Of a stretch of 22,381 nucleotides of DNA, positions 2,631 to 20,653 are shown piece after piece. The notes under the pieces were generated by a model. The model saw only the letters and a list, made by a program, of their open reading frames with translations. It made no database searches and was not told where the DNA came from. The number at the start of each line of letters is the position of its first letter. The first letter of the stretch is position 1. The translations under genes and the position numbers were made by a program. This DNA comes from a virus. Its lineage: Duplodnaviria > Heunggongvirae > Uroviricota > Caudoviricetes. The stretch is from the IMG/VR virus record IMGVR_UViG_2585427768_000008, positions 1 through 22,381 of that record; one strand, 5' to 3'.

Positions 2631-5600
2631 TTAATCCACTCCCACTTTTTTGTTGTACTCGCGGTTAAACCGATCCACGGCAACCTTCATATCCCGCTCT
2701 ACCGATTTCACCATCGCCGCCTGCTGCGCCAGACTGAGAGAACTGTCGGCATAAATGGCATCGCGCTGTTTGCGCAAATCCTTCAGTCTCTTCCGGGTAT
2801 CCTGCATAAGCCCGTTCATCAACAATTTTCCGTTGTTCTCGTCAATGAACGCCGTTCTTTCTGCACCGGTCAGACTCTTCAGCTCTGCGTGATACTGCGC
2901 AACCTCTGTCATCCGGTCGTACATCTTCTGCTGGTCTGCATACGGCATCACCTCACCCGAAATTTTCCCCAGGAAGGGCACCTGCTGTTCCGGTATATCA
3001 ATACCATTCAGCGATTTCACCGCCGCATCCGTGGTTTTGGAAATGAAGCGCCCTGTCCCTCCGGAGATATAGTCAATCCAGAATTTCAGCGATTCCGGTG
3101 TGATATCCACCGCGCCGGGACGATACTGGCTGCCACCTGAGAACGCATTCAGCCAGAATGCAAACGCCTTGTACGCTTCTGGCGTTGAACGTCTTCCCAG
3201 CTGGCTGTCAGGTTTTGGTGTACCAAACGGCATGTTCTCCTGGTAAATCTGCGCCCCCATGAAGTTTTCGTTCATGGCAAGATTCGCAAACGGACGCAGA
3301 ATTGTCGGTGCTGCATTTTTCAGCAATGCCCCCGACAACGTTTCCGACGTCTCGCTGCCGATCGGGCTGAATGCCCCCAGGATACCGCCGACAACATTAC
3401 CGGCAGCACGTGAAGCAGTCAGGTCGCCCGCTGCCACACCTTCAGCTGTATGACCAAGCAGGAAGAACACGTTGTACCCGTAAGGCAGAGGAATACTCCA
3501 GTACTCACCGGCCTTGCCCCCGAACATCGATTTCATGATGACGAGGTTACGCTCTTTCACATGAGACGGTACTTTGTCGTACCAGTTACCCCCGTCATCA
3601 TCCTCCCCCGCCACACTGCGGTTAAGCGAGCCAAGCAGATAACCCGCTCCCACAGCTGCAAGCACGATTTTCTGCGGTACATTGAGATTCTTCCAGCGAA
3701 GGCGCTCCAGTAACGGCCCGTCGCCATTAAGATGTCCGAGCGTTCTCACCAGGTTTGCGGTCCCCTGAATGCTGGCGTTGGCAAACATGTACAGCGAGTT
3801 CATCAGCATCCCCTGCTCACCACGACGGTTAAAGTTCACCGTCATGTTTTTGGCAAGAGACGCCGCCTGCTGGCGTGACAAACCGGCATCACGGGCGTGT
3901 TTATAGGCAGAAAGACGCAGAGCGTTTTCAACCGCGCCGTTGGCATCCTCGACCAGGTTCAGGAACGAATGCCATGCACCGATACTCTGGCCTTTCCATC
4001 CGCCCTTCGCCAGCGACACAAGGCGATCCATTTCCTTCTGCTGGCCCTCAAGGTCACCCATGTTAAACCAGCCGGTTTTACCTCCGTCCTCAACAAACTC
4101 TTTCCACACTTTCTGCCACTGTGCGCCTTTGCCCGTGAGGGTTTTACCCCGCAGACTTGCGTATACGGCTGACATGGCGGAACGGCTGTCTTTCACCACA
4201 GCCAGCGCGGATAAGTTATCCAGCTCTTTCAGTTTACCGTCGCTCCTTCCCTGCTCAGCCTTCAGGTTCATCACCGCAGTCTGCACGTCACGGATGAAGT
4301 TACTGACCAGAAATTCCGGGTTATACGACGTGTTCACCGTTGCCAGGAAGCGGTTAACTTTCCCCAGCGTACGGATTACGGCGTTACTGGTTTCCGGCCC
4401 CATGTTCTTCATCGCACGCATCAGGCGCGGATCATGAAGTTTAATGTAGTAAGTTTTGCCGTCCTTTTTGGTGGTGAAGTAGCGATCCGCCATCATTGCC
4501 ATCGGCACAGGGCGCTCGACAACTTCGCGAATGGTTTCACCAGTTTCCTGGTCCTTGCGCTCTGCAATCACACGCATTGTATCCGGTCTGTCATCAGTGA
4601 ATCCCTGCCAGTAATCCTTGTCGGGATTATCCTGTACCAGTTTCAGGAAGGCGTTACCCACTTCATTTTTGCGATTGCGGATCAGCGATTCACTCAAATC
4701 CTGTATCGCCTGAGTGGAAGGAGACTGTGCGCGGGATGCACGCCCCATGGCCTGCTTACTTTCACGCCCGCCGATGGTGAATCCCTTGCCTGTACGTGGC
4801 TGTGACACCACACCGTCAACATCCTGCCCTTTCAGGGGGACGTAGTAACGGTAGGCTTTCTGCCAGGCATCCACCACGCCGCTCTCTTCCAGTCCTGCCT
4901 CACGGATAATCTCACGGCGACGGGCCAGCATATCGTCAATAATCCCTGCCAGACGGTCATACTGTGCCTGTTTGCCGCTGTTACGCACACGCTGCATGAT
5001 TTCCGCCGCTTCCGCGTTGGTCATCCCCGAACCGCCGTCCGGCATTTTCGGGTTGATTTTCGCAATATGCACGTTACGTTCCGGCGCGTGACGGGCGTAG
5101 AGGTACTCATCCAGATCGGCCTGCGCAATTTTGTAGTCCGCCAGCAATTTGGCCAGCGGCTGAACGTAGCGCTCCTTCATTACGTTCAGGTCGTTTTCCG
5201 CCTTCCCGTGGAAGAGTTCTTCAGCCATATAGGCGTTATTGCTGTCATCTATTTTTCCGCCAGTTTTACGGATATTCTCCTGCACCGCCTTCAGCACCTG
5301 GAATTTATCCTGCATCTGGCGAACAAAACGGGATGCAATTGTCTCTTCCGGCGTCAGACTGCTGGTGCGGGAGTAATACGGCCCCTTGCGAATATCTTCA
5401 GGATAGAGTATTTTATCAACAGAGCCGCGATAAGAATGTTCCCCTTTGGGCAATTGGAGCCCTCTGTGCAGAAGGTTATCGCGGCTTAATTTTTCTCTCC
5501 GGTACAACGTTAAACCGGTCATTTCCATACTCTTCAGTTTTTTCCCGTTTTCCGTACCGTAAACAGATGCCACCTTGTTGATTTCCAGGCGCGACCGGAC

Positions 5601-8600
5601 AGCCTTCATGTGTACCGCTGACACCACCGGATCACCATTTTTATCCACGGCATCAAGCAGCATCACAACCGCGTTTCTTTCTGTCGCGGAACGGTAAATT
5701 GCATCCGGATCGTGCATCAGTTCCGGTAGTCTCTCGATAACATCCATCGGCACCACATGTTTCACACCATTGGTGGCCTTACGCACAGTGTCGCGGGAGA
5801 TAACCAGCGGCAAATCTGGTGCGCCAAGGTGACGCAATACCGGCGGCGTACGCCCGATGTTTACCGTTAAATCCGTTGAGCGCAGAGACTTCATCATTCT
5901 GGCAAGGTCATCACGATAACGCTCGCCCTCACCTTCCGGCACTTTGAACGGATCAGGCTTACCGCTACGGGAGTACTGAGACGATGCGTCCGCGCCATCC
6001 TCACGCGGCGTGTAACCTTCCCGCACACGCTGGCCTAACGTGCGAATAGTTTCGCGAACAAGTCTGATATCGTTCAGTTCCGTCGGCTTCAGTAACCCCG
6101 TACGACGCAGTACCCCTTTGACCAGGGCAACAACACGCTCCCATGCCGCCACGAATTTAATCGGCTGCTTCTCTGCCATATGCGCCAGAAATTCACCCGC
6201 CTGCACTTCCGGTGATTCCTTACCATAAGACGCATCAACCTTACGCCAGGCTTCACGGATGGTGGCGTTATCACTGTCACGGGTTTTCAGCACGGTCTTA
6301 ATAATCGTCTGATATTCCGCTGGCGTGACTACATGCTCCATTGCATGGTGAATAATCTCGTGACGTAACTTCTCGCGAACGGTCCGCCCGTCAGGGATGT
6401 TATCCGCCACCAGGACAATTTCACGTTTATCCGGACGATAGAACGCGTGCACCTTGCCGTAACCGTCGAATGATTCCCCCGCCAGTGCTTCAGCCTCTTT
6501 CTGTGACTTCACCACGCGGACCTTCAGGTCACTGTCCTTAATGCCACTAATCACGCCACGGGCAACAGCTTCAACCTGCGGGACCGGACTGCCTTTGGCT
6601 TCCGCACTACGGTTAACATCCGAAATCAGATTGCCTTCAGGTGTGCGGGTCACGCCCTTACGGGAATAAAACGCAACTCCCTTGTCCGTCTCACGGGTTT
6701 TCAGTGTTCGGAACAAGTGATCGAATGCCTCACGAATACCGCCATCCAGTTCTGCATTCGTCGGATAAGCGTAGGTGTCCGGCTGTCCATGGTCATCCGC
6801 CTTACGGATATTGACCAGATAATCATTCTCCACGCCAGCCATACGCGCTTTATCCTGAACATAACGCTCAAAGGCTCGCGCCGCCATTTCAACATCCGTT
6901 GACCAGTACGGTTTTGAACGAACGCCATCCAGGCGTTCAGAACGACGCAACATGTCACTGCTGTTAATGGCTTTCATCACGCCTTTAAACGCGTCGTAAA
7001 CCTCCTGACGTACCGGATATTCCGCATCAACATACCTGCCGTCTTTAAATACGCGCCCGGCACGCTGTGCTTCCGTCATATAGTCGCCACCTGACGTGAT
7101 CTTCCCGTCAGTGGAAACATCATAACGACCAAAATAATTATCCAGTGAATGGAACCATTCGTGGGCCAGCGCCCCCGGTCCGTTACCTTTTGTCAGGTTG
7201 ATTGCCACCTCACCCGGCTCATAGTGTGCCGCCGCCTTACCCTTACCACGGGCACCAAAAGCAAGCCCAAGACGACCGTTCAGAGAAAGCGCTTTTGTCG
7301 GCACGTTCAGCACGTCAGCCAGGTCATGCAGCGAGTCATAAGCCCGGTTCAAATCAGCCTGACGACGCGGACTTTCCACATAATTACCAAACTGCACACC
7401 ACGAAAACCAAACGCATCACTGAACTGCTCCGGCGAAACATCCCCCTTGCGGCGTTCTGGTCCGGTACGATCGCGGTTGGTGGCGTTACGCTGCTCCTCA
7501 CGCGAGACTTCACGCAGCGCCTTCACCTGATTAACCAGCTCATCACGATGTGTGCGCACATAATCATGTGCATCACGGGCAGACTCAAAACCGCCCTTCA
7601 GTTTCTGCCTGTTTTTGCCATAACCGATAAAAATGTCGCCACTGGCCTTATGCCGGTACACGTCAAAGGTTATTCTGTCATCAGCAGAGGTTGCTGGCGT
7701 TTCCCTTTCTCTGGAGCCTTGTTCATCGAAATATGCTTTCGCCTTTTTCAGTAACTCATCCCGGCTTTCCGAGAAAAAGAGGTCGCGCCCCTTGCTATCA
7801 CGAAGCGAATACATCATTTGCGGCGGATCGTAACGTTTTCCCCCGACAAACGAATAAACACCGGACCTGACACGATAGCCGGATGCTTTATCAATCTGCA
7901 ATGCAGAAAGCGTACGGAGCAGTTTCCAGGTATCCGACATGCTCCGTAACCCCGGCTTACTGTCCATCATATCAGCCAGTTTCGCTGCCGGAATTTTCCC
8001 CTCCAGCATACCGGCAGTAGCTTCGCGACCGCTTTTAACAATGCTGATCCATTTCTGCATGTTACGGCTTGTTCTGGTGGGAATTTCACTGCGATACAAC
8101 GCCATCATTGCCAGCGTGTCACTATCCACACCTTCTTTTTCCAGACGGGCATAATCCGGCTTTGGAAACAGTTTGCTCAGTGGTTGTGTCGCGTACTCCC
8201 CATCCTCCAGCGTTTTACCCATAGCTTCAGCAAGCTGCGCATAACGGTGTTTTGCCGCGCCCTTAATCTCCTCGCCAAAGTCTTCAATTTTCGCACCACG
8301 CGCCTGCTGGTGAGTGCTCGGTTTATCTACCGGCACCGGCACCTCAGTATCCGGAACATCGGTTATGGTCTGGCGATTATCCCCGGTCTGTCTGCGTGCT
8401 TCTGCCTGCTGTGCCAGTTCCGGAAGGGAGTCACGAACCATACGAGGGAGTGATTCAGGCTGTGGCATATCAACCCCACGCTGACTTTCAGGTGCAGGAA
8501 GACCTTCACGCACTGGTGCTGTGGCGTTCTGCTCATCCGGTGACGGCAGACCACGACGAACTGTTTCGCCCTCCAGTATTTCCCCCTGGCGACCAGCGGC

Positions 8601-10484
8601 ATTTTCCGGTGCCTGCGCACGTCCTTTCTGGAAACTCTGGCCCTTCACCTCACCGGTTGTGGTAAAACGACCACCACGTCCGGCCTGATTTTCATCCGGC
8701 GTACGCGCTACTTCTCCTGGTAACGGATATCCCTGTCCGGGATGAATATCGCCGGGAGCGGGAAGGCGTGGACGCTCAGTTAACTCCTGTGCTGTCGGAC
8801 CGGCATCACCTTCAGCCATCTGGGAACGCACCAGTTCTTCCGCCGTCGGCGCGTTGCCACGAGCAAGACGGGCCTGCACTTCTGTATCATCCCCCGTAAA
8901 ACCACGGAATCGCGGGTCACGCATGAACGCGGGCTGTTCCATCGGATCAGCATCAGTAATACGCTCTCCGTCAGCCAGAGTGTTAATGGTCTCCGTTGCC
9001 ACATCTTCAGAGAACGCAGGATTATCCATTTCAACGGCATACTGATTCTCGCCTTTCTTCACTACGGACGGTTTCAGGCCGGTGGCGCTGGCATTGCGGA
9101 AAACGTCGCTCCCCAGAGCACTTTTTTCATCCGTGAAATAACGGTTGTCCGGACGCACCTTTTCAATGCGTTCTGCTGGTCTGGACGCACCACTCTCGTT
9201 AATTTCAATACGAACTTCATCCGGATCGCGGAACCGCACCGTCGGGTAAATACTCCCGTCGCCATCATCCGCATTTTCCGGCTGTGGCTGTGCCTCCGGT
9301 CTGGCCTCCCGCTGAGGGCGAAGCACATCACGTATTGCCTGTAACTGCTGCTCTTCAGTATCAGTACGCCCTTCCTTCTGGCTGAGTTTTCGGTATTCCT
9401 CAAGCAGTTCAGGGCGCGGCTTCGCCTTCAGCTCATCCATCACCGCCTGTCGCTTCGCCTGTTCATCCAGTTCATTCAACAGCTGGCTGGCGGCTTCCCG
9501 GCGATGAACGGCAGACGTGTCTCCCTCATGTGCCATATCCGCATCAGCATACTGTTCCAGAAGCTGCTCGCGATTCATCCCCTGCATAGATTCACGATGC
9601 TGTGCCACCGGATCAACCGGTTCGGGTTGCGGAGCCGATTCGTCCTGAGGAACGCTTTCAGCCTCACGCATGGCTGCTTCATCTGCCGCCTGACGTTTTC
9701 CACGATATCCGGCAGCCGCACCGAATGGTGCCCCCATTGCAGCACCAAGGGCTGCACCTTCGATCGTTGCGTCAGCCACGCCCTCCCACGGTGACACATC
9801 CATTCCGGCGGTCTCACGCAATGCCGTGTTTTCCTGATAGCGTGAATAGCCACCCTGCGCCGCATTAATCGTCCCCTGTTCCGTGGCATTTCTGACAATG
9901 CCGCTTTTAACGGTCTTCGCCGTGCCCCGCATCGCCAGATTAAGCAACTGAGCATCGCCCAGTTTTGCCGCCATGGCATTCACAGCCAGCAATTCAGGAT
10001 CGGTTGCCAGCTGCGCACGCACCTCATCGGCAACACGCTCTTTTGCCAGGTCCATTTTCTGGCGGTCAGTAAGCTGCGCGTGCTGCGGATCTGCATCAAT
10101 TGACAAAAAGGTCTGCTGAAATTTCGGTGACTTCGCCAGCTCAGAATAATCCGCGTTAAGAACAGCATCTGCCGCTGCCATTGCACTCCGCCCTTGCGCA
10201 CTGACAGTGGAATGGGTGATCAGGCCTGCCTGGAAAAAATCCGGCATTTTTTTATCGACAGCTTCGGCTGCCAGTGCTGTGGCTCTTTCCGGCTGCATCC
10301 CTGCCGCGATGTATTTTTTCTCCAGCCCGGCGGTCAGCACTTTTCGCAGAGTGACATCACCCAGCTTTTTAGTCACACCGCCTGCAACCATATCCGGTAC
10401 AAGCGCACCAATCAGGTTAACTCCACAAGCCTTCGCAACTTCAGGGATGCCGACACCTTTAATCGGCTCATCAAGATTTTGCAT
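2631..10484 (-). CDS. giant multidomain protein (about 2617 aa) with zincin-like HExxH motifs; function unknown, possibly polyvalent-protein-like
   Basis: Uninterrupted 7.9-kb ORF on the minus strand. Preferred start is ATG at 10484 (AAGGA 7 nt upstream); the track start at 10517 has no RBS. HEWFH encoded at 7149-7163 and RHEIIHHAMEH at about 6334-6363. No Walker A or methyltransferase motifs seen. GC content visibly higher than the neighbouring AT-rich operon. Confidence 0.9.
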   Translation of the reverse strand: MQNLDEPIKGVGIPEVAKACGVNLIGALVPDMVAGGVTKKLGDVTLRKVLTAGLEKKYIAAGMQPERATALAAEAVDKKMPDFFQAGLITHSTVSAQGRSAMAAADAVLNADYSELAKSPKFQQTFLSIDADPQHAQLTDRQKMDLAKERVADEVRAQLATDPELLAVNAMAAKLGDAQLLNLAMRGTAKTVKSGIVRNATEQGTINAAQGGYSRYQENTALRETAGMDVSPWEGVADATIEGAALGAAMGAPFGAAAGYRGKRQAADEAAMREAESVPQDESAPQPEPVDPVAQHRESMQGMNREQLLEQYADADMAHEGDTSAVHRREAASQLLNELDEQAKRQAVMDELKAKPRPELLEEYRKLSQKEGRTDTEEQQLQAIRDVLRPQREARPEAQPQPENADDGDGSIYPTVRFRDPDEVRIEINESGASRPAERIEKVRPDNRYFTDEKSALGSDVFRNASATGLKPSVVKKGENQYAVEMDNPAFSEDVATETINTLADGERITDADPMEQPAFMRDPRFRGFTGDDTEVQARLARGNAPTAEELVRSQMAEGDAGPTAQELTERPRLPAPGDIHPGQGYPLPGEVARTPDENQAGRGGRFTTTGEVKGQSFQKGRAQAPENAAGRQGEILEGETVRRGLPSPDEQNATAPVREGLPAPESQRGVDMPQPESLPRMVRDSLPELAQQAEARRQTGDNRQTITDVPDTEVPVPVDKPSTHQQARGAKIEDFGEEIKGAAKHRYAQLAEAMGKTLEDGEYATQPLSKLFPKPDYARLEKEGVDSDTLAMMALYRSEIPTRTSRNMQKWISIVKSGREATAGMLEGKIPAAKLADMMDSKPGLRSMSDTWKLLRTLSALQIDKASGYRVRSGVYSFVGGKRYDPPQMMYSLRDSKGRDLFFSESRDELLKKAKAYFDEQGSRERETPATSADDRITFDVYRHKASGDIFIGYGKNRQKLKGGFESARDAHDYVRTHRDELVNQVKALREVSREEQRNATNRDRTGPERRKGDVSPEQFSDAFGFRGVQFGNYVESPRRQADLNRAYDSLHDLADVLNVPTKALSLNGRLGLAFGARGKGKAAAHYEPGEVAINLTKGNGPGALAHEWFHSLDNYFGRYDVSTDGKITSGGDYMTEAQRAGRVFKDGRYVDAEYPVRQEVYDAFKGVMKAINSSDMLRRSERLDGVRSKPYWSTDVEMAARAFERYVQDKARMAGVENDYLVNIRKADDHGQPDTYAYPTNAELDGGIREAFDHLFRTLKTRETDKGVAFYSRKGVTRTPEGNLISDVNRSAEAKGSPVPQVEAVARGVISGIKDSDLKVRVVKSQKEAEALAGESFDGYGKVHAFYRPDKREIVLVADNIPDGRTVREKLRHEIIHHAMEHVVTPAEYQTIIKTVLKTRDSDNATIREAWRKVDASYGKESPEVQAGEFLAHMAEKQPIKFVAAWERVVALVKGVLRRTGLLKPTELNDIRLVRETIRTLGQRVREGYTPREDGADASSQYSRSGKPDPFKVPEGEGERYRDDLARMMKSLRSTDLTVNIGRTPPVLRHLGAPDLPLVISRDTVRKATNGVKHVVPMDVIERLPELMHDPDAIYRSATERNAVVMLLDAVDKNGDPVVSAVHMKAVRSRLEINKVASVYGTENGKKLKSMEMTGLTLYRREKLSRDNLLHRGLQLPKGEHSYRGSVDKILYPEDIRKGPYYSRTSSLTPEETIASRFVRQMQDKFQVLKAVQENIRKTGGKIDDSNNAYMAEELFHGKAENDLNVMKERYVQPLAKLLADYKIAQADLDEYLYARHAPERNVHIAKINPKMPDGGSGMTNAEAAEIMQRVRNSGKQAQYDRLAGIIDDMLARRREIIREAGLEESGVVDAWQKAYRYYVPLKGQDVDGVVSQPRTGKGFTIGGRESKQAMGRASRAQSPSTQAIQDLSESLIRNRKNEVGNAFLKLVQDNPDKDYWQGFTDDRPDTMRVIAERKDQETGETIREVVERPVPMAMMADRYFTTKKDGKTYYIKLHDPRLMRAMKNMGPETSNAVIRTLGKVNRFLATVNTSYNPEFLVSNFIRDVQTAVMNLKAEQGRSDGKLKELDNLSALAVVKDSRSAMSAVYASLRGKTLTGKGAQWQKVWKEFVEDGGKTGWFNMGDLEGQQKEMDRLVSLAKGGWKGQSIGAWHSFLNLVEDANGAVENALRLSAYKHARDAGLSRQQAASLAKNMTVNFNRRGEQGMLMNSLYMFANASIQGTANLVRTLGHLNGDGPLLERLRWKNLNVPQKIVLAAVGAGYLLGSLNRSVAGEDDDGGNWYDKVPSHVKERNLVIMKSMFGGKAGEYWSIPLPYGYNVFFLLGHTAEGVAAGDLTASRAAGNVVGGILGAFSPIGSETSETLSGALLKNAAPTILRPFANLAMNENFMGAQIYQENMPFGTPKPDSQLGRRSTPEAYKAFAFWLNAFSGGSQYRPGAVDITPESLKFWIDYISGGTGRFISKTTDAAVKSLNGIDIPEQQVPFLGKISGEVMPYADQQKMYDRMTEVAQYHAELKSLTGAERTAFIDENNGKLLMNGLMQDTRKRLKDLRKQRDAIYADSSLSLAQQAAMVKSVERDMKVAVDRFNREYNKKVGVD

Positions 10485-10562
10485 AGGGATATCCTTTTTC
10501 GTACTTTCAGTACGCATTATGATTGAACTGAAAGTTTTTGCAAGTGCTTTAGTATCGTACTC
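10485..10562. promoter_or_regulatory. divergent promoter/operator switch region between giant gene and cI-like repressor
   Basis: Minus-strand promoter TTGCAA (10538-10543), 16-nt spacer, CATAAT (complement of 10516-10521). Perfect 15-bp palindrome CGTACTTTCAGTACG (10500-10514) just downstream of the -10; inverted partial copy ACTGAAAGT (10527-10535). A third CGTAC-N5-GTTCA element (10556-10570) overlaps the cI start. cI has no Shine-Dalgarno; TAGTAT (10550-10555) lies 7 nt before its ATG, suggesting a leaderless transcript as for lambda pRM. Confidence 0.5.
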
Positions 10563-11270
10563 ATGGTTCAGAATGAAAAAGTGCGCAAAGAATTCGCCCA
10601 GCGGCTAGCGCAAGCCTGTAAAGAAGCTGGTCTTGATGAACATGGTAGGGGAATGGCTATAGCCCGTGCCCTTTCTCTTTCGTCCAAAGGCGTTAGCAAA
10701 TGGTTTAATGCTGAGTCTTTACCGCGTCAGGAAAAAATGAATGCGCTTGCGAAATTTCTAAACGTTGATGTTGTTTGGCTTCAGCACGGCACTTCGTTAA
10801 ATGGAGCGAATGATGAAGATACTCTTTCATTTGTTGGCAAATTAAAAAAAGGGTTAGTGCGCGTGGTTGGTGAGGCAATTCTTGGTGTTGATGGTGCCAT
10901 CGAGATGACCGAAGAGCGCGATGGGTGGCTCAAAATTTATAGCGATGATCCAGATGCCTTTGGCCTTCGTGTGAAAGGAGACAGCATGTGGCCCAGAATA
11001 AAATCAGGAGAATATGTACTCATTGAGCCTAACACCAAAGTATTCCCGGGTGATGAGGTGTTTGTCAGAACCGTTGAAGGACACAACATGATTAAGGTTC
11101 TTGGCTATGACAGAGATGGAGAATACCAATTTACAAGCATTAACCAGGATCACAGGCCTATAACGTTGCCTTATCATCAAGTAGCAAAGGTGGAGTATGT
11201 AGCTGGTATTCTGAAGCAATCTCGCCATCTGGATGACATCGAGGCAAGGGAGTGGCTGAAAAGTTCGTGA
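10563..11270 (+). CDS. cI: CI-like prophage repressor (N-terminal HTH, C-terminal S24 LexA-like peptidase)
   Basis: 235-aa ORF. N-terminal HTH-like segment (GMAIARALSLSSKGVSKWFN) and C-terminal GDSMWP serine motif with a downstream conserved lysine (MIKVLG), as in LexA/CI autocleaving repressors. Position and orientation match cI relative to the pL operon. Confidence 0.88.
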   Translation: MVQNEKVRKEFAQRLAQACKEAGLDEHGRGMAIARALSLSSKGVSKWFNAESLPRQEKMNALAKFLNVDVVWLQHGTSLNGANDEDTLSFVGKLKKGLVRVVGEAILGVDGAIEMTEERDGWLKIYSDDPDAFGLRVKGDSMWPRIKSGEYVLIEPNTKVFPGDEVFVRTVEGHNMIKVLGYDRDGEYQFTSINQDHRPITLPYHQVAKVEYVAGILKQSRHLDDIEAREWLKSS

Positions 11271-11330
11271 CTTCATCGTCACATAGCTGGTAACCAGTGG
11301 CCAGAAGAAACGTTTGGGTGAGGAGGATAG

Positions 11331-11672
11331 ATGGCGTTCACTGACCTTGAATATCAAGCGGTCAAAAAAGAAGTTCACCAATTCATTGAAAGCATAAGGC
11401 CGCCTGAACATATCCGCAATGAACTGGATATTGTTTATAGCATCAATGACCAAACGATAGATATCGGCGAACAGCGCCCCGTGTGGCAGGGCAACCCAGG
11501 TGAAACAAACATCCTGCCATCAGCAAGAATCAAGTACATACGTTCTCTGGATAGATGGAAAATCTATTGGATGCGGAAGGATATGAAATGGCATCAGTAC
11601 AGTACTGAACTTTCGCTGACTGATGCGCTTGAGCTTGTGCGTGCTGACCCGGATTGCTGCTTCTTCGGATGA
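11331..11672 (+). CDS. hypothetical protein, first gene downstream of cI
   Basis: 113-aa ORF with strong RBS GAGGAGG before the ATG; same strand as cI and no terminator between them. No recognisable motifs. Confidence 0.6.
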   Translation: MAFTDLEYQAVKKEVHQFIESIRPPEHIRNELDIVYSINDQTIDIGEQRPVWQGNPGETNILPSARIKYIRSLDRWKIYWMRKDMKWHQYSTELSLTDALELVRADPDCCFFG

Positions 11673-11739
11673 GTGAAGAGACGTTTGGATGATGGATGGT
11701 CGCAGAGATGCGGCCTGATTCTAAAATAGGATATAAAAA

Positions 11740-12201
11740 ATGAGAATACTAGGTGTTAGAGCGGCGCCCAAAGTTACATCTTTTGTTGTATATTGCACTA
11801 ATGAGTCTGCACTCAAATGTGTTGATGTTATTAAAATACCTTCGACCTTAGACACACCAGAAAAATTAAAGTATGTGAGAAATAACATCCTCGACATTCT
11901 TAATTTATATAATGTTGAATTAGCTGCCATACGCGTTACTGAATCAAACTCTGATAATCTTAGCATTGACCGCCTTTATATAGAAGCTGTTATTCAAGAA
12001 GCATTTTCAAGCAGTGATGTAAGAAAATATTACACTATTAGAAAATCTGGCATGAAATCATCATTGAACCTAACAGAGATCGAGTATAAAGAAATATTGA
12101 AGTCACACCGCAATATAAATGGAATCGATAATTCTGGTTTTACAACTGAAACAAATGAAGCTGTTTTGGCTGCTCTATCTGCGGAGGTAAGGGGATGCTA
12201 A
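11740..12201 (+). CDS. hypothetical protein, upstream partner of Ser/Thr kinase
   Basis: 153-aa ORF in a markedly AT-rich segment; AGGA upstream of the ATG; 3' end overlaps the kinase start by 7 nt. No recognisable motifs. Confidence 0.6.
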   Translation: MRILGVRAAPKVTSFVVYCTNESALKCVDVIKIPSTLDTPEKLKYVRNNILDILNLYNVELAAIRVTESNSDNLSIDRLYIEAVIQEAFSSSDVRKYYTIRKSGMKSSLNLTEIEYKEILKSHRNINGIDNSGFTTETNEAVLAALSAEVRGC

Positions 12202-13241
12202 CTCCATACAAAAGAGCTGATGTAGAATTCGAATGGATTAGTGATCTAGAAGAACAGGGTTGTTTTTCAAAAGTATATCTGGCTCATGACAGACACCTAG
12301 CTCATGACTTGGTGATTAAAGAAATAGAAAAAAAAGAAAACACTAACCACGACGACTACTTTAATGAAGCAAGGCTTCTCTATAAACATGCACATCCAAA
12401 TATTGTGCAAGTTCAGTATGCTGCTCAATGTGAGAGCAATATCTATATAGCCATGCCATTTTATCATAATGGTTCGCTAAACCAATTAATGAAAAAAAAT
12501 AATCTTACAAGCAGGGAGATAATACGGTATTCCATTCAATTTTTAAGTGGACTTTATCATATACACTCAAAAGGTCTTATGCATTTTGATATAAAACCTA
12601 ATAACATTATGATATCAAACAGAAATGAGGCCATGCTATCTGACTTTGGATTATCTCAGTTAGTCAATGAGGAATCGAGAGCTGCGCCTGAGTTTGGATA
12701 TCATTTTCATGTGCCACCGGAATATTTTTCTTTATCAACAAATGATTATAATTTCACATATGACATATATCAGGCAGGATTAACCATATATAGAATGTGT
12801 GTTGGACATGATAATTTTGAAAGAGAAAGATCTGCATTTAGCACGATTGAACAACTCAGAGAGTCGATAATTAATGGCTGCTATCCATTAAAAGAGTATC
12901 CTCCCCATATACATAAAAAATTAATAACAATAGTGAACAAATGCATTCATGTAGATCCAAATGAAAGATATCAATCCGTACTAGATGTACTAAACGATCT
13001 CTCAGCTATAAGTGATGGCGTTCTTGACTGGCGTCTACAGATGACGAAACCAACTAACGGCACATGCGAATGGCAAAAAAAGTCTGGGGACGCTATACTG
13101 TCTATAGTTTTTGACGCAGAAAATTCGTCTACTACTGGTTTTCGTTTATACGATGATGGGCGGAAAAGGCGTGCTACGAACTTAACAATATCCTCAGGAT
13201 GTACCCCTACAAAACTGTATAGGTTATTAAAGGATAACTGA
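12195..13241 (+). CDS. eukaryotic-like (Hanks-type) Ser/Thr protein kinase
   Basis: 348-aa ORF with GGAGG 7 nt upstream. Kinase subdomain motifs in order: glycine-rich-like loop EQGCFSKVY, VIK lysine, catalytic loop HFDIKPNN (about 12583-12606), DFG (12642-12650), PPE (APE-like), DIYQAG. AT-rich. Confidence 0.85.
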   Translation: MLTPYKRADVEFEWISDLEEQGCFSKVYLAHDRHLAHDLVIKEIEKKENTNHDDYFNEARLLYKHAHPNIVQVQYAAQCESNIYIAMPFYHNGSLNQLMKKNNLTSREIIRYSIQFLSGLYHIHSKGLMHFDIKPNNIMISNRNEAMLSDFGLSQLVNEESRAAPEFGYHFHVPPEYFSLSTNDYNFTYDIYQAGLTIYRMCVGHDNFERERSAFSTIEQLRESIINGCYPLKEYPPHIHKKLITIVNKCIHVDPNERYQSVLDVLNDLSAISDGVLDWRLQMTKPTNGTCEWQKKSGDAILSIVFDAENSSTTGFRLYDDGRKRRATNLTISSGCTPTKLYRLLKDN

Positions 13242-13243
13242 TC

Positions 13244-13408
13244 ATGAAAAAGCGCGAGGAAGTAAGCAAGCTGCCTCGCAGACGTGATGCAGCATTAGCG
13301 GTTCCCTACAAAAAAGATGAGTTCATAAGCCCTTCTGATGACAAAAAATTTTCAAAGGCGAAAAGTTTTACATCTACATCTCTAAAAGATAAATACTTTA
13401 AAATCTAG
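13244..13408 (+). CDS. small basic protein (54 aa), translationally coupled to kinase
   Basis: ATG at 13244, 2 nt after the kinase stop, with AAGGA upstream; stop TAG 13406-13408 directly precedes the terminator. Not in the supplied ORF track (below its length cutoff); read by hand. Confidence 0.35.
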   Translation: MKKREEVSKLPRRRDAALAVPYKKDEFISPSDDKKFSKAKSFTSTSLKDKYFKI

Positions 13409-13434
13409 CCCGGCCTCAGCGCCGGGTTTTCTTT
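13409..13434 (+). terminator. rho-independent terminator ending the cI/kinase operon (tIMM-like)
   Basis: CCCGGC (13409-13414), 6-nt loop, GCCGGG (13421-13426), followed by TTTTCTTT. Confidence 0.7.
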
Positions 13435-13605
13435 GCCTCACGATCCCCCACCTAAAAAAACATAACTCATTGTATTTATTGATGTAACTCGCTAAACCAT
13501 GCAGTTCTGATCCCTGCCGCATAACCTTCATCAGCCACATTTTCAAAAATAAATTTCCTTATATATCAGAATCATACTTCGTAGAGTTAATAAATCACCA
13601 AAATT

Positions 13606-13650
13606 CGTACCAATAGTTCTTGATAATGTCGAACTATTGGTTCACTATTA
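13606..13650 (+). promoter_or_regulatory. candidate pL-like promoter with inverted-repeat operator
   Basis: 11-bp inverted repeat ACCAATAGTTC (13609-13619) / GAACTATTGGT (13631-13641) with 11-bp spacer containing TTGATA (13620-13625, -35-like); weak -10-like CACTAT at 13643-13648. CGTAC-N5-GTTCT at 13606-13620 resembles elements in the cI switch region. Confidence 0.4.
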
Positions 13651-13717
13651 TCGTCATCAGCAGGACGCATTACTCACCAGGGCGGTGAATATACAACGAT
13701 TCGAATATGAATCTACG

Positions 13718-13732
13718 GCGCTGACAAAGCGC
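13718..13732 (+). promoter_or_regulatory. nutL-like boxB RNA hairpin (P22 type)
   Basis: GCGCT GACAA AGCGC: 5-bp stem with GACAA pentaloop, the boxB form I recall for phage P22. Lies between the pL-like promoter and the N-like gene. No convincing boxA found upstream. Confidence 0.6.
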
Positions 13733-13742
13733 AATAACCAAA

Positions 13743-13885
13743 GTGAACTTTGGGGTGTGGTGAAGGGTTCATGGACGGGAATATGTCGCACGTAAAGCGG
13801 CGAGGCCTGTGGGACTATTGCCGAATTGAAGTAGGCCGAAACAGGTCGAAATGGGTCTCCCACCTACCACACCACCAAAGTTCAT
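13743..13885 (+). other. long-range helix in the N-like gene leader (possible RNase III-type processing or translational control structure)
   Basis: TGAACTTTGG (13744-13753) and GTGTGGT (13755-13761) pair with ACCACAC (13867-13873) and CCAAAGTTCA (13876-13885), about 17 bp with one bulge, enclosing about 105 nt. The helix ends 1 nt before the AGGAGG Shine-Dalgarno (13887-13892). Confidence 0.4.
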
Positions 13886-13897
13886 CAGGAGGTCTAT

Positions 13898-14998
13898 ATG
13901 ACACGCAGAACTCAGTTCAAAGGCAATTCACGTTCTCGTCGTCGTGAGCGTTTAAAGGCAAAGGCATTAGCTAACTGCGTACTGGCCCGCGAAGAAGCAA
14001 TAAGTTCAGAAGTATTACACCGCCCTACTCTAAGCAGAGCGCAGATTCAGGCTAAAGGTACTCACGAAACGCCTGAGCGCATAGAAGACGCTAAGCCAAT
14101 TAAGTTCATGGCACAGGACGTGATCTGGCAACAGAAAGAATACAGACGCAATCTGGAGCGAGCAGCCATTGTGTACGCGAATGAGTTTGGACATAAGCAA
14201 CCAGAAACTGGTGTATGTCTTCCAAACGTAGCCATTTACGCGGCAGGCTACCGGAAATCAAAACAACTGACGGCGAGGGGATTGATGACCACGCCTTCAG
14301 TTTTGCCGCAAAAGTTATGGCGTCCGCTTGCAGAGATTAAAAACTTCGTTGAAAAAATGCCTGATGGAGTTCGCCTTACGGAAGTTACTAAAAAAGTTAA
14401 GACATTTGCCGAACTGTCAGGAAAGGAGAGAAACCAGCTCATAGATTTTATCGATAAACGGGAAAGCATCATTGTATTTAAGGTCAGAAAAGAAGGTTCT
14501 GGTAACGGAGTAACCTTTTTCCGCCACAAAAAATATGGATATCCCAAACGGGAAGGAAACGTCACAATCACTAAGGACCTTCAATCAAAATTATGTACCA
14601 GATGCGGGCAGACAAAATCAGTCAATGATTTTTATTCAGATGCCAGCAAGCGTGACGGGAGAGCCATTTATTGCAAGAAGTGCGAATCTGCAATGAAACG
14701 CTCACGCAGAAAATGCAACAAATTAATTCTGCAACAACAGGAACCTGAAATGAATAACCTCAAAGCAGTTTCACCTTCACCAGAAATACTCAGAAAACAG
14801 GCTGAAGAATTGCTGAAAGCCGCCGAAATTGCGGAGAAAAAACGCCAGGAAGATGATGCATTCAACAAAAAACTTGCGCCCTTAAAACTTGAAATCCTTC
14901 AGGCCGCCGGAAAAATGCAGCTTAAACTGGACGAATTCATCGACTGTATGGATGAAATGAATAAAGCAGTTCAGAAGCTTAAAGAGCTGACCGCCTGA
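13898..14998 (+). CDS. N-like transcription antiterminator with arginine-rich N-terminus, extended by a CxxC...CxxC zinc-ribbon and coiled-coil C-terminal region
   Basis: 366-aa ORF, AGGAGG 5 nt upstream. N-terminus KGNSRSRRRERLKAKALAN resembles the arginine-rich motif of the P22 N protein (recalled as GNAKTRRHERRRKLAIER) and pairs with the P22-type boxB upstream. CTRCGQ...CKKCES motif near residue 250. Much longer than typical N proteins. Confidence 0.6.
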   Translation: MTRRTQFKGNSRSRRRERLKAKALANCVLAREEAISSEVLHRPTLSRAQIQAKGTHETPERIEDAKPIKFMAQDVIWQQKEYRRNLERAAIVYANEFGHKQPETGVCLPNVAIYAAGYRKSKQLTARGLMTTPSVLPQKLWRPLAEIKNFVEKMPDGVRLTEVTKKVKTFAELSGKERNQLIDFIDKRESIIVFKVRKEGSGNGVTFFRHKKYGYPKREGNVTITKDLQSKLCTRCGQTKSVNDFYSDASKRDGRAIYCKKCESAMKRSRRKCNKLILQQQEPEMNNLKAVSPSPEILRKQAEELLKAAEIAEKKRQEDDAFNKKLAPLKLEILQAAGKMQLKLDEFIDCMDEMNKAVQKLKELTA

Positions 14999-15029
14999 TA
15001 TTAATAAATTGCAACTACCGGAGTTAACT

Positions 15030-16822: not shown

Positions 16823-18895
16823 ATGAGCGCTGATAAACAGACTTTTGCACTACACTGCGAAGCAAAAAACGATAAAGTCAGAAAACGCCTTGGCATCAAA
16901 GGCGGTTTTTTCTGGACCGAGGCCAGAAAACTTTCTGTCGCAGTTTCCCGCTGCATTGCAGCCATGGACGATGCAGGCTACGACGAGGATGATTTCAAAA
17001 AACCCGTTCGCGTAAATTTCCCCGTCGTGAATGACCTTCCACCGGAAGGCGTGTTTGATACTGAATTCTGCAACCGCTATGAAAAAGGCGGGGAAGATGG
17101 CATCACCATGATGGCTATATCCTTCAATGACAACATCAACGGTGAAGATGCCACAACTGCTGGCGATGACAACGATGACCCGGACGGAACTATTCCGGAT
17201 GATGTGGAGAAAAGCGAATCCCCGGACAGCGACGATGACTGTTCTGAGTGTGAAATTCCCGTCGCCACTCTGAGCCTTACTCATCGCTTCCTTCACCTCT
17301 TCTTCTTCAGCAAGGATGAAGATGGAAAATACCGGCATCACGCCACACCAGAACAACGCAATAACGTGATCCGTATGGAGATGGACACAGAGGACAGTTA
17401 CCTTCAGAGCCTGCTTACTGCTGTGCGCGCCGCACATCATGAACTGGATAAACTGACGAACTATCACCTTAGTCGCCTGGCTGAATCTGTAGGGAAAGCA
17501 TTCCCCCACTCTGCAAATCATCGCATCAGCCCGGCTGAATTCGACAAGTTCATTTCCACCTGGATGAAAACTGACTACCTTGATCAGGGCCTGCTGACAA
17601 AAGAATGGCAGAACGGAAATTATGTTTCAGGCATTACCCGTACGCCTTCCGGTGCTAACGCTGGCGGCGGAAATCTTACCGATCGTGGTGAAGGATTCAA
17701 ACATGATAAGACATCACTCGCACGAGATGTAGCCACCGGCGTTCTGGCCCGTTCAATGGATGTGGATATTTATAACCTGCACCCAGCACACGCAAAACGC
17801 GTTGAAGAAATCGTGTCAGAGAATAAGCCGCCCTTTTCTGTTTTTCGCGACAAATTTATCGCCATGCCCGGTGGGCTGGATTATTCCCGCGCCATTGTGG
17901 TGGCTTCCGTGAAAGAAGCACCAATCGGCATTGAGGCCATCCCGGCACGCGTGACTGAATATCTCAACAAAGTGTTGACCGAAACCGATCACGCTAACCC
18001 GGATCCGGAAATCGTGGAAATTGCCTGCGGTCGCTCATCAGCACCGATGCCGCAGCGCGGAACAGCAGAAGGAAAACATGGCGATGAAGAAAAGCAACAA
18101 GCATCGGACACAATGGCTAATGAACAGGCAGCGCCTGAATCAGTGGAAGAAATTCCAGTTAAACATAATGAGGACACGCAATCACTGGAAAATGTCTCAT
18201 CTGTAGAAACGAAATACCAGGAACTGAGGGAGGAACTCAATAAAGCCAGGGAAAACATCCCCCCAAAAAATCCAGTCGATGCCGACAAATTACTGGCTGC
18301 CTCGCGTGGAGAATTCGTTGAAGGCATCAGTAACCCTGCTGATCCGAAGTGGGTGAAGGGGATCCAGACTCGCGACACTGAGGACCAGAATCAGTCCAAA
18401 GTGGAACAAATTGCCCCAGAAGCGGGACAAAACAGCCCGGATACGCAACAAAACGGGTCAGAAGAGCAACAGCCAGGGCCAGTAGCGCAACCGGAGCTGG
18501 AAAAAAACTGCCGCGTCTGTGGTCAGACTGGCGGGGGGAACTGCCCCGACTGTAGTGCGGTAATGGGCGATAGCACTTACACAGAAACTTTTGGAGAAAA
18601 TGACGCCGCTGATGGAGAAGACTCAGCACAAACTGAGGAGAAGATCATTCAGGAAAACTCTGTTGATGCCGCTCAGGAGGGCGAAACCGTTGTTCAGAAC
18701 GAGCCAGGCAGTGATACGTCCGGCGATGACGCCAATTCTGAGCCAGTAACTCTCGACTGGAAAAGACAGCTCGTGATTGCCGCCGTCTATGGTTTGTGCG
18801 CCAACCCCGCATGTATAGCCACAGCGCCAGCAATCCCTGATATCGCCATCATGATTGCCAACAGGCTTGAAAATTTCGGAGGTGATAAATCATGA
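16823..18895 (+). CDS. large acidic hypothetical protein (690 aa) with zinc-ribbon motif, translationally coupled to gam
   Basis: Long ORF whose stop overlaps the gam start (ATGA at 18892-18895). Strongly acidic D/E-rich tracts (e.g. [30 protein letters not shown]), CRVCGQ...CPDC motif, hydrophobic C-terminal tail. Confidence 0.8.
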
Positions 18896-19188
18896 ATGCC
18901 TGGCTTATCCCCGATCGCATTGAAGAGCAGTCATGGGCACGACACTACCAGCAAATTGCCCGTGAAGAAACTGAAGCTGAGCTGGCAGACGACCTGGAAA
19001 AAGGTCTGCCCCAACACCTGTTTGAATCGCTATGCATCGATAATCTGCAACGTCACGGGGCCAGCAAAAAAGCTATTTCCCGTGCATTTGATGACGATGT
19101 CGATTTTCAGGAACGCATGGCAGAACACATCCGCTACATGGCTGAAACCATCGCCCGTCACCAAATTAATATTGATTCAGAGGTATAA
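18892..19188 (+). CDS. gam: Gam host-nuclease (RecBCD) inhibitor, short form
   Basis: 98-aa protein that I recognise from memory as close to the lambda GamS sequence (...QSWARHYQQ...[35 protein letters not shown]...). Confidence 0.9.
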
Positions 19189-19193
19189 AACTG

Positions 19194-19979
19194 ATGAGTA
19201 CAGCACTCGCAACGCTGGCAGGGAAGCTGGCTGAACGTGTCGGCATGGATTCTGTCGACCCACAGGAACTAATCACCACTCTTCGCCAGACGGCATTTAA
19301 AGGTGATGCCAGCGATGCGCAATTTATCGCATTGTTGATCGTCGCCAACCAGTACGGCCTTAATCCCTGGACGAAAGAAATTTACGCCTTCCCTGACAAG
19401 CAGAACGGCATCGTTCCGGTGGTTGGCGTTGATGGCTGGTCCCGCATTATCAATGAAAACCAGCAGTTTGATGGCATGGACTTTGAGCAGGACAATGAGT
19501 CCTGTACATGCCGGATTTACCGCAAAGATCGCAATCACCCGATCTGCGTTACCGAGTGGATGGATGAATGTCGCCGCGCACCATTCAAAACCCGCGAAGG
19601 CAGAGAAATCACCGGACCGTGGCAGTCGCATCCCAAACGGATGTTACGGCACAAAGCCATGATTCAGTGTGCTCGCCTGGCCTTCGGATTTGCTGGCATC
19701 TATGACAAGGATGAAGCCGAGCGTATTGTCGAAAATACTGCATATACTACAGAACGTCAGCCGGAACGCGACATCACCCCGGTTAACGAAGAAACCATGT
19801 CGGAAATTAACGCCCTTCTTACTTCCATGGAAAAAACGTGGGATGACGACCTGTTGCCGCTCTGTTCCCAGATTTTTCGCCGCAACATTTACACATCTTC
19901 AGAACTAACACAGGCTGAAGCTGTGAAGGTTCTTGGATTCCTGAAACAGAAAGTCACAGAGCAGAAGGTAGCAGCATGA
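19194..19979 (+). CDS. bet: Bet (Red-beta) single-strand annealing recombinase
   Basis: 261-aa protein that matches my recollection of lambda Bet nearly residue for residue from [66 protein letters not shown] onward. Confidence 0.95.
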
Positions 19980-20653
19980 CACCGGACATTATCCTGCAAC
20001 GTACAGGGATCGACGTGAGAGCTGTCGAACAGGGGGATGATGCGTGGCACAAATTACGGCTCGGCGTCATCACCGCTTCAGAAGTTCACAACGTGATAGC
20101 AAAACCCCGCTCAGGAAAGAAATGGCCTGACATGAAAATGTCCTACTTCCACACCCTGCTGGCTGAGGTTTGCACCGGTGTGGCTCCGGAAGTTAACGCT
20201 AAAGCGCTGGCCTGGGGAAAACAGTACGAGAACGACGCCAGAGCCCTCTTTGAGTTCACTTCCGGCGTGAATGTTACTGAATCCCCGATCATCTATCGCG
20301 ACGAAAGTATGCGCACCGCTTGCTCTCCCGATGGTTTATGCAGTGACGGCAACGGCCTTGAACTGAAATGCCCGTTTACCTCCCGGGATTTCATGAAATT
20401 CCGGCTCGGTGGTTTCGAGGCCATAAAGTCGGCTTACATGGCCCAGGTGCAGTACAGCATGTGGGTGACACGAAAAGATGCCTGGTACTTTGCCAACTAT
20501 GACCCGCGTATGAAGCGTGAAGGACTGCATTATGTCGTGGTCGAACGGGATGAAAAATACATGGCTGGTTTTGACGAAATGGTGCCAGAGTTCATCGAAA
20601 AAATGGACGAGGCACTGGCTGAAATTGGTTTTGTATTTGGGGAGCAATGGTGA
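19976..20653 (+). CDS. exo: lambda-type 5'-3' exonuclease (Red-alpha)
   Basis: 225-aa protein matching my recollection of lambda Exo ([68 protein letters not shown]...); start overlaps the bet stop (ATGA). Confidence 0.95.

Follow-up and report, generated by a model that had tools for sequence, protein, structure and literature searches.

The closest described relative of the locus analysed here is the kinase gene stk of phage 933W. The locus itself lies in a 22,381-nucleotide (nt) stretch of viral DNA (IMG/VR record IMGVR_UViG_2585427768_000008, positions 1 to 22,381), and this whole stretch is called the window below. As summarised in four publications (PMC3681748, PMC3564112, PMC6356687 and PMC8008677), Stk is a eukaryote-like (tyrosine) kinase that is expressed in the lysogen and that is activated by infection with phage HK97, which leads to abortive infection. 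The kinase gene is further stated to be cotranscribed with the repressor gene cI (PMC3564112), and Stk to have little or no activity in uninfected cells (PMC3681748). The abortive-infection function of stk is close to certain, and the published exclusion of HK97 by the same gene bears out the initial annotation of the window, which had proposed a phage-exclusion module downstream of cI. The genes flanking stk are not mentioned in these four papers. Here, we provide evidence that stk is an obligate member of a unit of three translationally coupled genes, encoding a RuvC-fold protein, the kinase and a small basic protein, that moves between genomes as a block.

Several other described systems resemble this locus in part. 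The rexA and rexB genes of phage lambda occupy the same slot, i.e., between cI and the pL/N region, with transcription from pRM in the lysogen. The general logic is also the same, namely abortive infection directed against heterologous phage (PMC3564112). Their mechanisms differ, with Rex working through a membrane channel and Stk through phosphorylation. Also, no Rex family was found among the Pfam, PADLOC, PHROGs and NCBIfam matches of the four proteins encoded between cI and the terminator; these matches are to kinase, RuvC-fold and DUF3024 families, and the two systems have no sequence or domain relation. Staphylococcal Stk2 (Depardieu et al. 2016) is a Hanks-type kinase that is switched on by a phage protein, resulting in abortive infection, and it is the only one among kinase systems that is named in a 2026 review of defence systems (PMC13276650). 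The likeness of Stk to Stk2 and to PD-T4-6, a Ser/Thr kinase defence gene of E. coli, appears to be limited to the Hanks-type kinase domain. Both of these are described as single-gene systems, without a RuvC-fold partner, a small open reading frame (ORF) or an equivalent C-terminal domain. Similarly, MAD6, which belongs to the eight-gene methylation-associated system MADS and has a size of about 610-660 amino acids (aa), has only the kinase domain in common with Stk.

In the case of 933W, on the other hand, the likeness extends to the whole locus. A megablast search with positions 11300-13450 as query against 50,697 phage records matched 162 of them, and 121 did so at an identity of at least 99%; these closest matches are 933W and about 120 other Stx-phage records. 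The DNA of 933W (AF125520/NC_000924) is 99.5% identical to the window over the full 2151 nt of the query, a stretch in which 933W carries L0084, L0083, stk, L0081 and the terminator tM. The kinase of the window is 100% identical to an E. coli protein cluster with 579 members (P0076). Of 5426 complete E. coli genomes, 225 contain the three-gene cassette (11740-13434). In E. coli ES5 it is 100% identical and located in an intact prophage that shares the cI-to-integrase arm of the window. Judged by this match, the locus is close to certain to be stk itself, in a 933W-type lambdoid prophage of the Stx family, and is in that sense already known. DNA, gene order, terminator and position are essentially those of 933W; what differs is the host element, which is a rearranged, defective prophage here, while the cassette itself shows no meaningful difference. 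The suggestion in the initial annotation of an undescribed variant analogous to 933W stk therefore does not stand, since L0083, stk and L0081 are all annotated in 933W. Taken alone, the finding in the window is of small weight, as the gene was already characterised in 2011 and is met here again at its normal position, in a common Stx prophage family. The cassette and its terminator consist of the following features.

11740-12201, plus strand: predicted RuvC-fold partner, 153 aa (933W L0083), with Arg at the position of the first catalytic Asp
12195-13241, plus strand: Stk, Hanks-type kinase, 348 aa (Pfam Pkinase, E=2e-46)
13244-13408, plus strand: small basic protein, 54 aa, pI 10.0 (933W L0081; PHROG 4063, 2.5e-39), third component of the cassette
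13407-13438, plus strand: intrinsic terminator tM, with an 8-bp stem (13407-13428, 6 G-C pairs) followed by the T-rich tail TTCTTTG

The 153-aa ORF and the kinase gene overlap by 7 nt, with the stop codon of the former and the start codon of the latter in the sequence ATGCTAA (12195-12201), which is preceded by a GGAGG ribosome-binding site, and the 54-aa ORF starts 2 nt past the kinase stop codon. This arrangement points to a real translational coupling of the three ORFs. The stem of the terminator downstream of the 54-aa ORF is formed by AGCCCGGC and GCCGGGTT, with a loop of 6, and its location coincides with that of the tM annotated in 933W; it closes the pRM transcript. The next downstream ORF (13898-14998) opens with an N antiterminator peptide domain. 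The succession of cI, accessory genes, a terminator and an ORF with the N peptide domain therefore corresponds to the lambda-like layout in which cI and accessory genes are followed by a terminator, pL/nutL and N. As annotated in 933W, the cassette lies between cI and tM, upstream of nutL/N and on the cI strand. In these respects the initial annotation was accurate: it had placed three ORFs of 153, 348 and 54 aa downstream of cI on the plus strand, in a slot equivalent to that of rexAB, with a coupled basic ORF at the end and a strong terminator behind it. Its gene inventory had one omission. The three genes stand, but there are four between cI and the terminator, and the DUF3024 gene located between cI and the 153-aa ORF had been missed. 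The GC content within the window is 0.33-0.36 for the cassette, 0.44-0.47 for cI and the DUF3024 gene, and 0.5-0.58 farther out, as in the gene for the virion protein LPD5, with the step at about 11700, where the gene for the 153-aa protein begins; the AT-richness of the cassette is consistent with a horizontally acquired moron. Two antisense ORFs within the cassette on the minus strand (11721-11966 and 12297-12467) were considered and found to have no support, and an Rfam scan of positions 10000-15000 found no RNA family.

The evidence that the three genes belong together comes mainly from other genomes. We scanned one genome per species (185,579 species) with an alignment of the kinase, which yielded 179 confirmed loci, and took the best 80 of these. 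They are distributed over Gamma-, Beta- and Alphaproteobacteria, Bacteroidota, Ignavibacteria and a cyanobacterium, with kinase identities of 36-57%. In all 80 loci, an ORF of the partner family, as detected with a hidden Markov model (HMM) of the partner, ends at or overlaps the start of the kinase gene, and overlaps of 8 nt (18 loci) and 4 nt (16 loci) occur most often. An ORF of 38-70 aa that starts between -28 and +32 nt from the kinase stop codon is present in 67 of the 80 (71 loci were selected when four earlier reference loci are counted in), and an HMM of the small proteins recovered 5 further loci that the start-codon rule had missed, giving about 72 of 80 in all; the overall share of loci with a small basic ORF behind the kinase is put at about 95%. 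The reverse approach gave the same picture. A scan of IMG/VR with the partner alignment returned 69 viral contigs, and the kinase is adjacent in 66 of them; among the three exceptions, two have a split or displaced kinase ORF, probably due to frameshifts, and one lies at a contig end. Three divergent homologues of the partner are each located directly upstream of a kinase gene. In a Klebsiella Rac-like prophage, the partner-kinase pair lies behind a different repressor and is followed by a 59-aa ORF; in a metagenomic contig the pair is located directly downstream of a complete Wadjet system (JetABCD); and the third case comes from a further metagenomic set.

Beyond these three genes, the surroundings are variable. 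Among the nearest neighbours of 74-76 loci, no fourth conserved gene, such as one for a phosphatase, and no recurrent family was found. The cassette sits in prophages, plasmids and islands, and its neighbours include type I restriction-modification (R-M) subunits, Wadjet, SWI2/SNF2 and ResIII helicases, a STAND NTPase, deaminases, cI-like and ImmA-type regulators, and transposases; neighbourhoods of this kind are typical of mobile and defence regions. Furthermore, the ratio of non-synonymous to synonymous substitutions (dN/dS) between the window and its Klebsiella homologue is about 0.05 for the partner, about 0.05 for the kinase, and 0.28-0.31 for the small ORF. Therefore, the three ORFs are not chance ORFs, and the small one, too, is under purifying selection. 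Altogether, the comparison of genomes shows stk to be an obligate part of a three-gene unit, whose genes are translationally coupled and travel together. The three-gene combination proposed initially is thus supported by partner adjacency in every one of the 80 species loci and in 66 of the 69 viral contigs, and by a small ORF in about 72 of the 80. No description of the obligate three-gene architecture, or of a RuvC-fold partner altered in this way, was found in PADLOC v2, NCBIfam, the literature searched or the 2026 review (PMC13276650), although such an absence is not proof, and a literature search returned no described defence system that combines RuvC and a kinase. Database matches identify an already characterised system in the case of the kinase; for the two partners, no described function was found.

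The initial annotation had recognised no motif in the 153-aa protein. PHROGs and RefSeq already label it as RuvC-like, and its predicted structure supports this assignment. At the sequence level, the signal is faint: Pfam gave no significant match, with RuvC (PF02075) scoring 14.2 bits against a cut-off of 22.2 (E=0.042) and over the N-terminal 65 residues only, and PADLOC had no match for this protein or for the 54-aa protein. A profile search of PDB sequences with the partner gave chance matches only and no RuvC, and hhalign of the partner against E. coli RuvC gave a probability of <2%. The AlphaFold2 model, built from 32 sequences, has a mean predicted local distance difference test score (pLDDT) of 91.6 and a predicted template modelling score (pTM) of 0.86, and contains a beta-beta-beta-alpha-beta-alpha-beta core followed by C-terminal helices. 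Comparison of the model with known folds places a RuvC / RNase H-like fold over the whole 153-aa protein. According to the model, the partner is a RuvC fold with an altered active site; the fold comparison is convincing, the sequence link is not. With a word-indexed search, 75 homologues with identities as low as 42% were identified, mostly from Enterobacterales with a few from elsewhere, and an HMMER scan of 1.84 billion cluster representatives extended the family to 442 clusters (counted at 50% identity) at E<=0.001. Among the best 150 of these 442 clusters, nearly all are stand-alone proteins of about 150-165 aa; none exceeds 243 aa and none is fused to a kinase.

The alteration of the active site concerns, first of all, the motif ILGID of RuvC, which reads ILG(V/I)R in the partner family and ILGVR in the window protein. 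The position of the first catalytic Asp is thereby occupied by Arg in 78 of 79 aligned members of the family, and by Lys in the remaining one. Arg65 of the partner lies opposite Glu66 of RuvC in both hhalign runs, which are very weak alignments. The acidic tetrad of RuvC (Asp7, Glu66, Asp138/His and Asp141, E. coli numbering) is not kept, while E68 and E140 are present. These equivalences were drawn from a weak profile alignment together with matching strand positions in the model, and are uncertain for the later residues. On the other hand, nine charged residues (R7, R47, D52, R65, E68, R78, E82, E87 and E140) are invariant or nearly so across phyla, a pattern that marks a functional surface and not a decayed enzyme. 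Compared with the RuvC resolvase, the partner has an identity of 12-17%, scores below the Pfam threshold and carries the family's Arg in place of the first catalytic Asp. Its constant companion is a kinase, and not RuvAB or phage recombination genes. The two resemble each other in fold alone.

The kinase contains a complete set of Hanks motifs, as the initial annotation had stated: VIK with Lys42, HFDIKPNN with Asp132 and Asn137, DFG at 150-152, and PPE at 174-176. Residues K42, E58, D132, K134, N137, D150, E176, D190 and R258 are invariant in all 81 members of the kinase family. The catalytic loop has the consensus HFDIKP(D/N)N, in which the Arg of the HRD motif is replaced by Phe in 79 of the 81, and the protein is therefore a non-RD kinase. 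Its activation segment contains Tyr169 in all 81 members and no conserved Ser or Thr, which fits the reported tyrosine phosphorylation. The kinase domain (about residues 10-275) is followed by a conserved beta-rich C-terminal domain (about 288-348); the model of the kinase has a pLDDT of 88.1, and the 4 strands and helix past residue 290 have a pLDDT of 93-95. W279 and W293 are conserved in the C-terminal region. The best PDB matches found with Foldseek are of the CAMK/AMPK type, and the alignments with AMPK-alpha continue through the C-terminal domain, with a very large root-mean-square deviation, so that any KA1/AMPK-CTD likeness of this domain is only a hint. Defence-system models match the kinase domain only. 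The best PADLOC models are MAD6 (E=7e-50), PD-T4-6 (best E=1e-37) and MkoA. About 20 of the 25 PADLOC models listed for the kinase are PD-T4-6 with similar matches, the best of which (128 bits) covers residues 20-273 of the protein (profile 18-273 of 292) and leaves the C-terminal domain uncovered. The NCBIfam matches are likewise confined to the kinase domain and far below the equivalog cut-offs (122.1 bits against 460 in the case of MAD6). The PD-T4-6 matches appear to reflect generic similarity among Hanks kinases.

The small basic protein is less uniform. In Klebsiella, Pantoea and Proteus, an ORF of 53-59 aa starts 2-5 nt after the kinase gene, and the enterobacterial proteins have a motif of their own (LPRRRDAALAxPY ... 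KYFK). The 54-aa protein and the Klebsiella 59-aa protein gave a marginal hit in a single pairwise BLAST comparison (E=5e-4). Small proteins from outside the Enterobacterales have a basic N-terminus with Y-x-(T/S)-R and a C-terminal motif consisting of G-x-Y and a hydrophobic residue, and the HMM built from them recovers neither the 54-aa protein nor the related enterobacterial proteins. From these sequences, the small ORF across phyla would best be called a positional equivalent and not a proven homologue.

What could such a cassette do? We propose that the working unit is a self-contained, horizontally mobile cassette, in which a non-RD Hanks kinase that has a C-terminal beta domain would operate together with the RuvC-fold protein and the small basic protein. 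Because their genes are translationally coupled, the three proteins probably form one complex. The RuvC-fold protein, which has lost the first catalytic Asp (and perhaps the second acidic residue, according to the weak alignment) while keeping a conserved charged surface, may serve as a sensor or adaptor. Since it has arginines where RuvC binds metal, it would be likeliest to recognise a nucleic-acid-like target or a recombination protein; the signal could be a phage recombination protein or the branched DNA made by that protein. The small basic protein may keep the kinase off, acting as an inhibitor or pseudosubstrate. Upon sensing, the kinase would autophosphorylate, probably on the invariant activation-segment Tyr169, and then phosphorylate host proteins, so that growth stops before the phage cycle is completed. 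For the overall picture, a three-gene stk cassette in which the partners sense the phage and gate the kinase, we lean slightly towards acceptance; the particular roles given to the partners, taken alone, are tentative and rather unlikely.

A possible lead to the signal comes from HK97. The exclusion is reported to be specific for HK97 and to depend on one HK97 gene, and the factor needed, in work by Friedman and colleagues of 2011, was reportedly gp41. In the HK97 genome (NC_002167), positions 24175-24780 encode an Erf-like single-strand annealing protein, between Gp40 and two small ORFs that precede kil (Gp43), and by gene order the gene numbered 41 would be that of the annealing protein. A literature search found nothing that links HK97 gp41 to Stk. 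If gp41 is indeed the factor needed, the trigger of Stk would be a recombinase and the obligate partner of the kinase would have a resolvase fold, which is a lead and not a result. In its most complete form, the proposal would be that Stk is one part of a widespread three-component immune cassette present in several phyla, in which the arginine-altered RuvC-fold protein is a non-cutting sensor of phage recombination (HK97 Erf or another annealing protein, or branched DNA formed by such a protein) that gates a tyrosine-autophosphorylating kinase, with the small basic protein as a brake. We consider it unlikely that all of this holds together.

Several points weigh against the proposal. First, the sensor and inhibitor roles are assigned purely by analogy. 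Second, the residue equivalence between the partner and RuvC leans on a weak alignment (the hhalign probability mentioned above) and on strand positions in a model. Third, five invariant acidic residues are kept in the partner (D52, E68, E82, E87 and E140), so it may have an enzymatic role. Fourth, the enterobacterial 54-aa protein has, as judged with the HMM, no detectable homology to the small proteins of other phyla. Fifth, if stk alone on a plasmid suffices for exclusion, the partners would be modulators and not essential parts. Finally, the prophage in the window itself is defective and has its cro joined to a virion gene, although pRM and cI are intact.

The best-surviving alternative, which is nevertheless improbable in our estimate, is that the cassette is a tripartite kinase toxin-antitoxin system following a HipBST-like logic: the RuvC-fold protein, the small labile protein or both would constitutively neutralise the kinase toxin, and infection or loss of the element would free it by stopping antitoxin synthesis, with no specific sensor being involved. 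The operon is indeed compact and coupled, the small basic protein is under weaker constraint than the other two (dN/dS 0.3), the kinase is nearly inactive without infection (PMC3681748), and the cassette is mobile, being located in prophages, plasmids and islands. The ES5 prophage also has a RelE/HigA pair nearby, and morons of the toxin-antitoxin type are common there. HipBST and HipAB have a kinase held in check by small co-operonic proteins, in a tripartite arrangement, as the stk cassette may have, but the likeness would be functional only: HipA and HipT belong to a different kinase fold family, and the stk cassette contains no helix-turn-helix (HTH) partner or other autoregulator. Moreover, the 933W cassette is driven by pRM and not by a promoter of its own. 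The reported specificity of the exclusion for HK97, and its dependence on one HK97 gene, would also speak for a particular trigger and against a general shut-off.

It is also conceivable that the RuvC-fold protein is an effector nuclease that is switched on by kinase phosphorylation and cuts branched or replicating DNA of the phage or the host. The invariant acidic residues listed above would leave room for an enzyme of some kind. However, a nuclease of the RuvC type is hard to reconcile with Arg or Lys at the first catalytic Asp position in all 79 aligned members and with Arg or Lys aligned at Glu66 in both hhalign runs, or with a score below the Pfam RuvC threshold, and the published phenotype is ascribed to the kinase (PMC3681748), with many proteins reported to be phosphorylated. 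We regard this explanation as having a small chance of being right.

The explanation closest to the published view is that Stk alone is the whole abortive-infection device, as has been proposed for Stk2 or PD-T4-6, and that the small flanking genes are unrelated morons that occupy the same slot. PMC3681748, PMC3564112, PMC6356687 and PMC8008677 attribute exclusion to Stk alone, and PADLOC matches the kinase only (PD-T4-6, MAD6 and MkoA models), leaving the 153- and 54-aa proteins without a match. Against this stands the adjacency in 80 of 80 species loci and 66 of 69 viral contigs, which holds in several phyla and whatever the neighbourhood, the stop codon of one gene overlapping the start of the next. 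Chance neighbours would not persist while the kinases diverge to 36-57% identity, purifying selection on the partner is as strong as that on the kinase, and the three genes share a distinct composition. The chance that Stk works as a single-gene system is therefore slim. Finally, a role of the cassette in the prophage's own biology, for instance in tuning the physiology of the host, the stability of the repressor, induction, or the virulence of E. coli that produces Stx, is highly improbable. Its enrichment in Stx phages and the cotranscription with cI in lysogens (PMC3564112) speak for it; against it are the demonstrated phage-exclusion phenotype, the wide occurrence of the cassette outside prophages and pathogens, next to R-M and Wadjet systems, and the report that loss of stk has no effect on the attaching-and-effacing (A/E) lesion phenotype (PMC3681748).

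Upstream of the cassette, the immunity region contains the following features, of which the operators and promoters of 933W were transferred through an ungapped alignment (offset 7299) that has only 3 mismatches right of position 10417.

10500-10570: operators oR1-oR3 with the divergent promoters pR, on the minus strand, and pRM/pM, on the plus strand (coordinates taken over from 933W)
about 10528-10555, plus strand: pRM, from which cI and the cassette behind it are transcribed in a lysogen (coordinates taken over from 933W)
10543-10516, minus strand: pR-like promoter
10563-11270, plus strand: cI repressor, 235 aa, with a LexA-type HTH and S24 autopeptidase (Peptidase_S24, 4e-16; HTH_3, 1e-05), matching 933W cI
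11331-11672, plus strand: DUF3024 protein, 113 aa (933W L0084; Pfam DUF3024, 2e-31)

The DUF3024 protein is a full-length match to the PADLOC single-gene candidate PDC-S43 (E=7e-42, residues 1-113 on profile positions 1-115 of 115). To our knowledge, PDC-S43 is a candidate defence system only, with no function shown. We ruled the DUF3024 gene out as a member of the cassette: it is absent from 79 of the 80 species loci, and its composition differs (GC 0.46 versus 0.34 for the cassette). It precedes the cassette only in 933W-like loci and in Proteus prophages, which account for one of the 80, and in the Proteus prophages it lies between a cI-type repressor and the RuvC-fold gene, with an identity of 37-40%. 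It is a separate accessory gene; it may act in defence on its own, or it may be an accessory to the cassette that is confined to certain lineages.

The remainder of the prophage shows several peculiarities. On the other side of the operators, a 2628-aa ORF (2631-10517, minus strand) joins about the first 22 codons of cro, in frame, to the body of a giant gene for an LPD5 polyvalent virion protein. To the right of position 10417 lies the 933W oR region, with oR and pR intact, and the start of cro, and to the left lies the LPD5 body, whose normal place is the distal end of the late operon. The microhomology at the junction (10417/10418) is only 1-2 nt. Such a junction implies that nearly all of the early-right and late region has been deleted, including cII, O, P, Q, stx and the genes for lysis and for head and tail morphogenesis. 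None of the 5426 complete E. coli genomes and no phage record spans this junction, which reflects either a unique defective prophage or an assembly chimera. On the cassette side, the TGA stop codon that N has in PhiR5_2 and ES5 is replaced by GGA at 14279-14281, and N (127 aa) reads in frame into a downstream gene for a hypothetical protein of 237 aa, giving the 366-aa ORF at 13898-14998. The cro fusion and the N read-through could be real damage in a prophage that is decaying but still has its repressor and its defence cassette, or they could be assembly or sequence errors. Farther along this arm (16823-20653), a gene for a RecE-family exonuclease (690 aa, 16823-18895) is directly followed by a Gam-Bet-Exo set of the Red type, so that two recombination systems adjoin each other.

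The importance of these observations lies in the kinase family rather than in the window. Its only studied member has been treated as a stand-alone kinase, yet in the genomes examined the kinase is always accompanied by a RuvC-fold protein, and almost always by a small basic protein. This suggests that the kinase-only models in defence-annotation tools miss the real boundaries of the system. The partner genes provide an experimental handle on how a prophage kinase recognises an incoming phage. If the proposed roles are correct, the cassette would represent a new class of defence sensor, in which a resolvase fold has been repurposed for detection and coupled to eukaryote-like kinase signalling.

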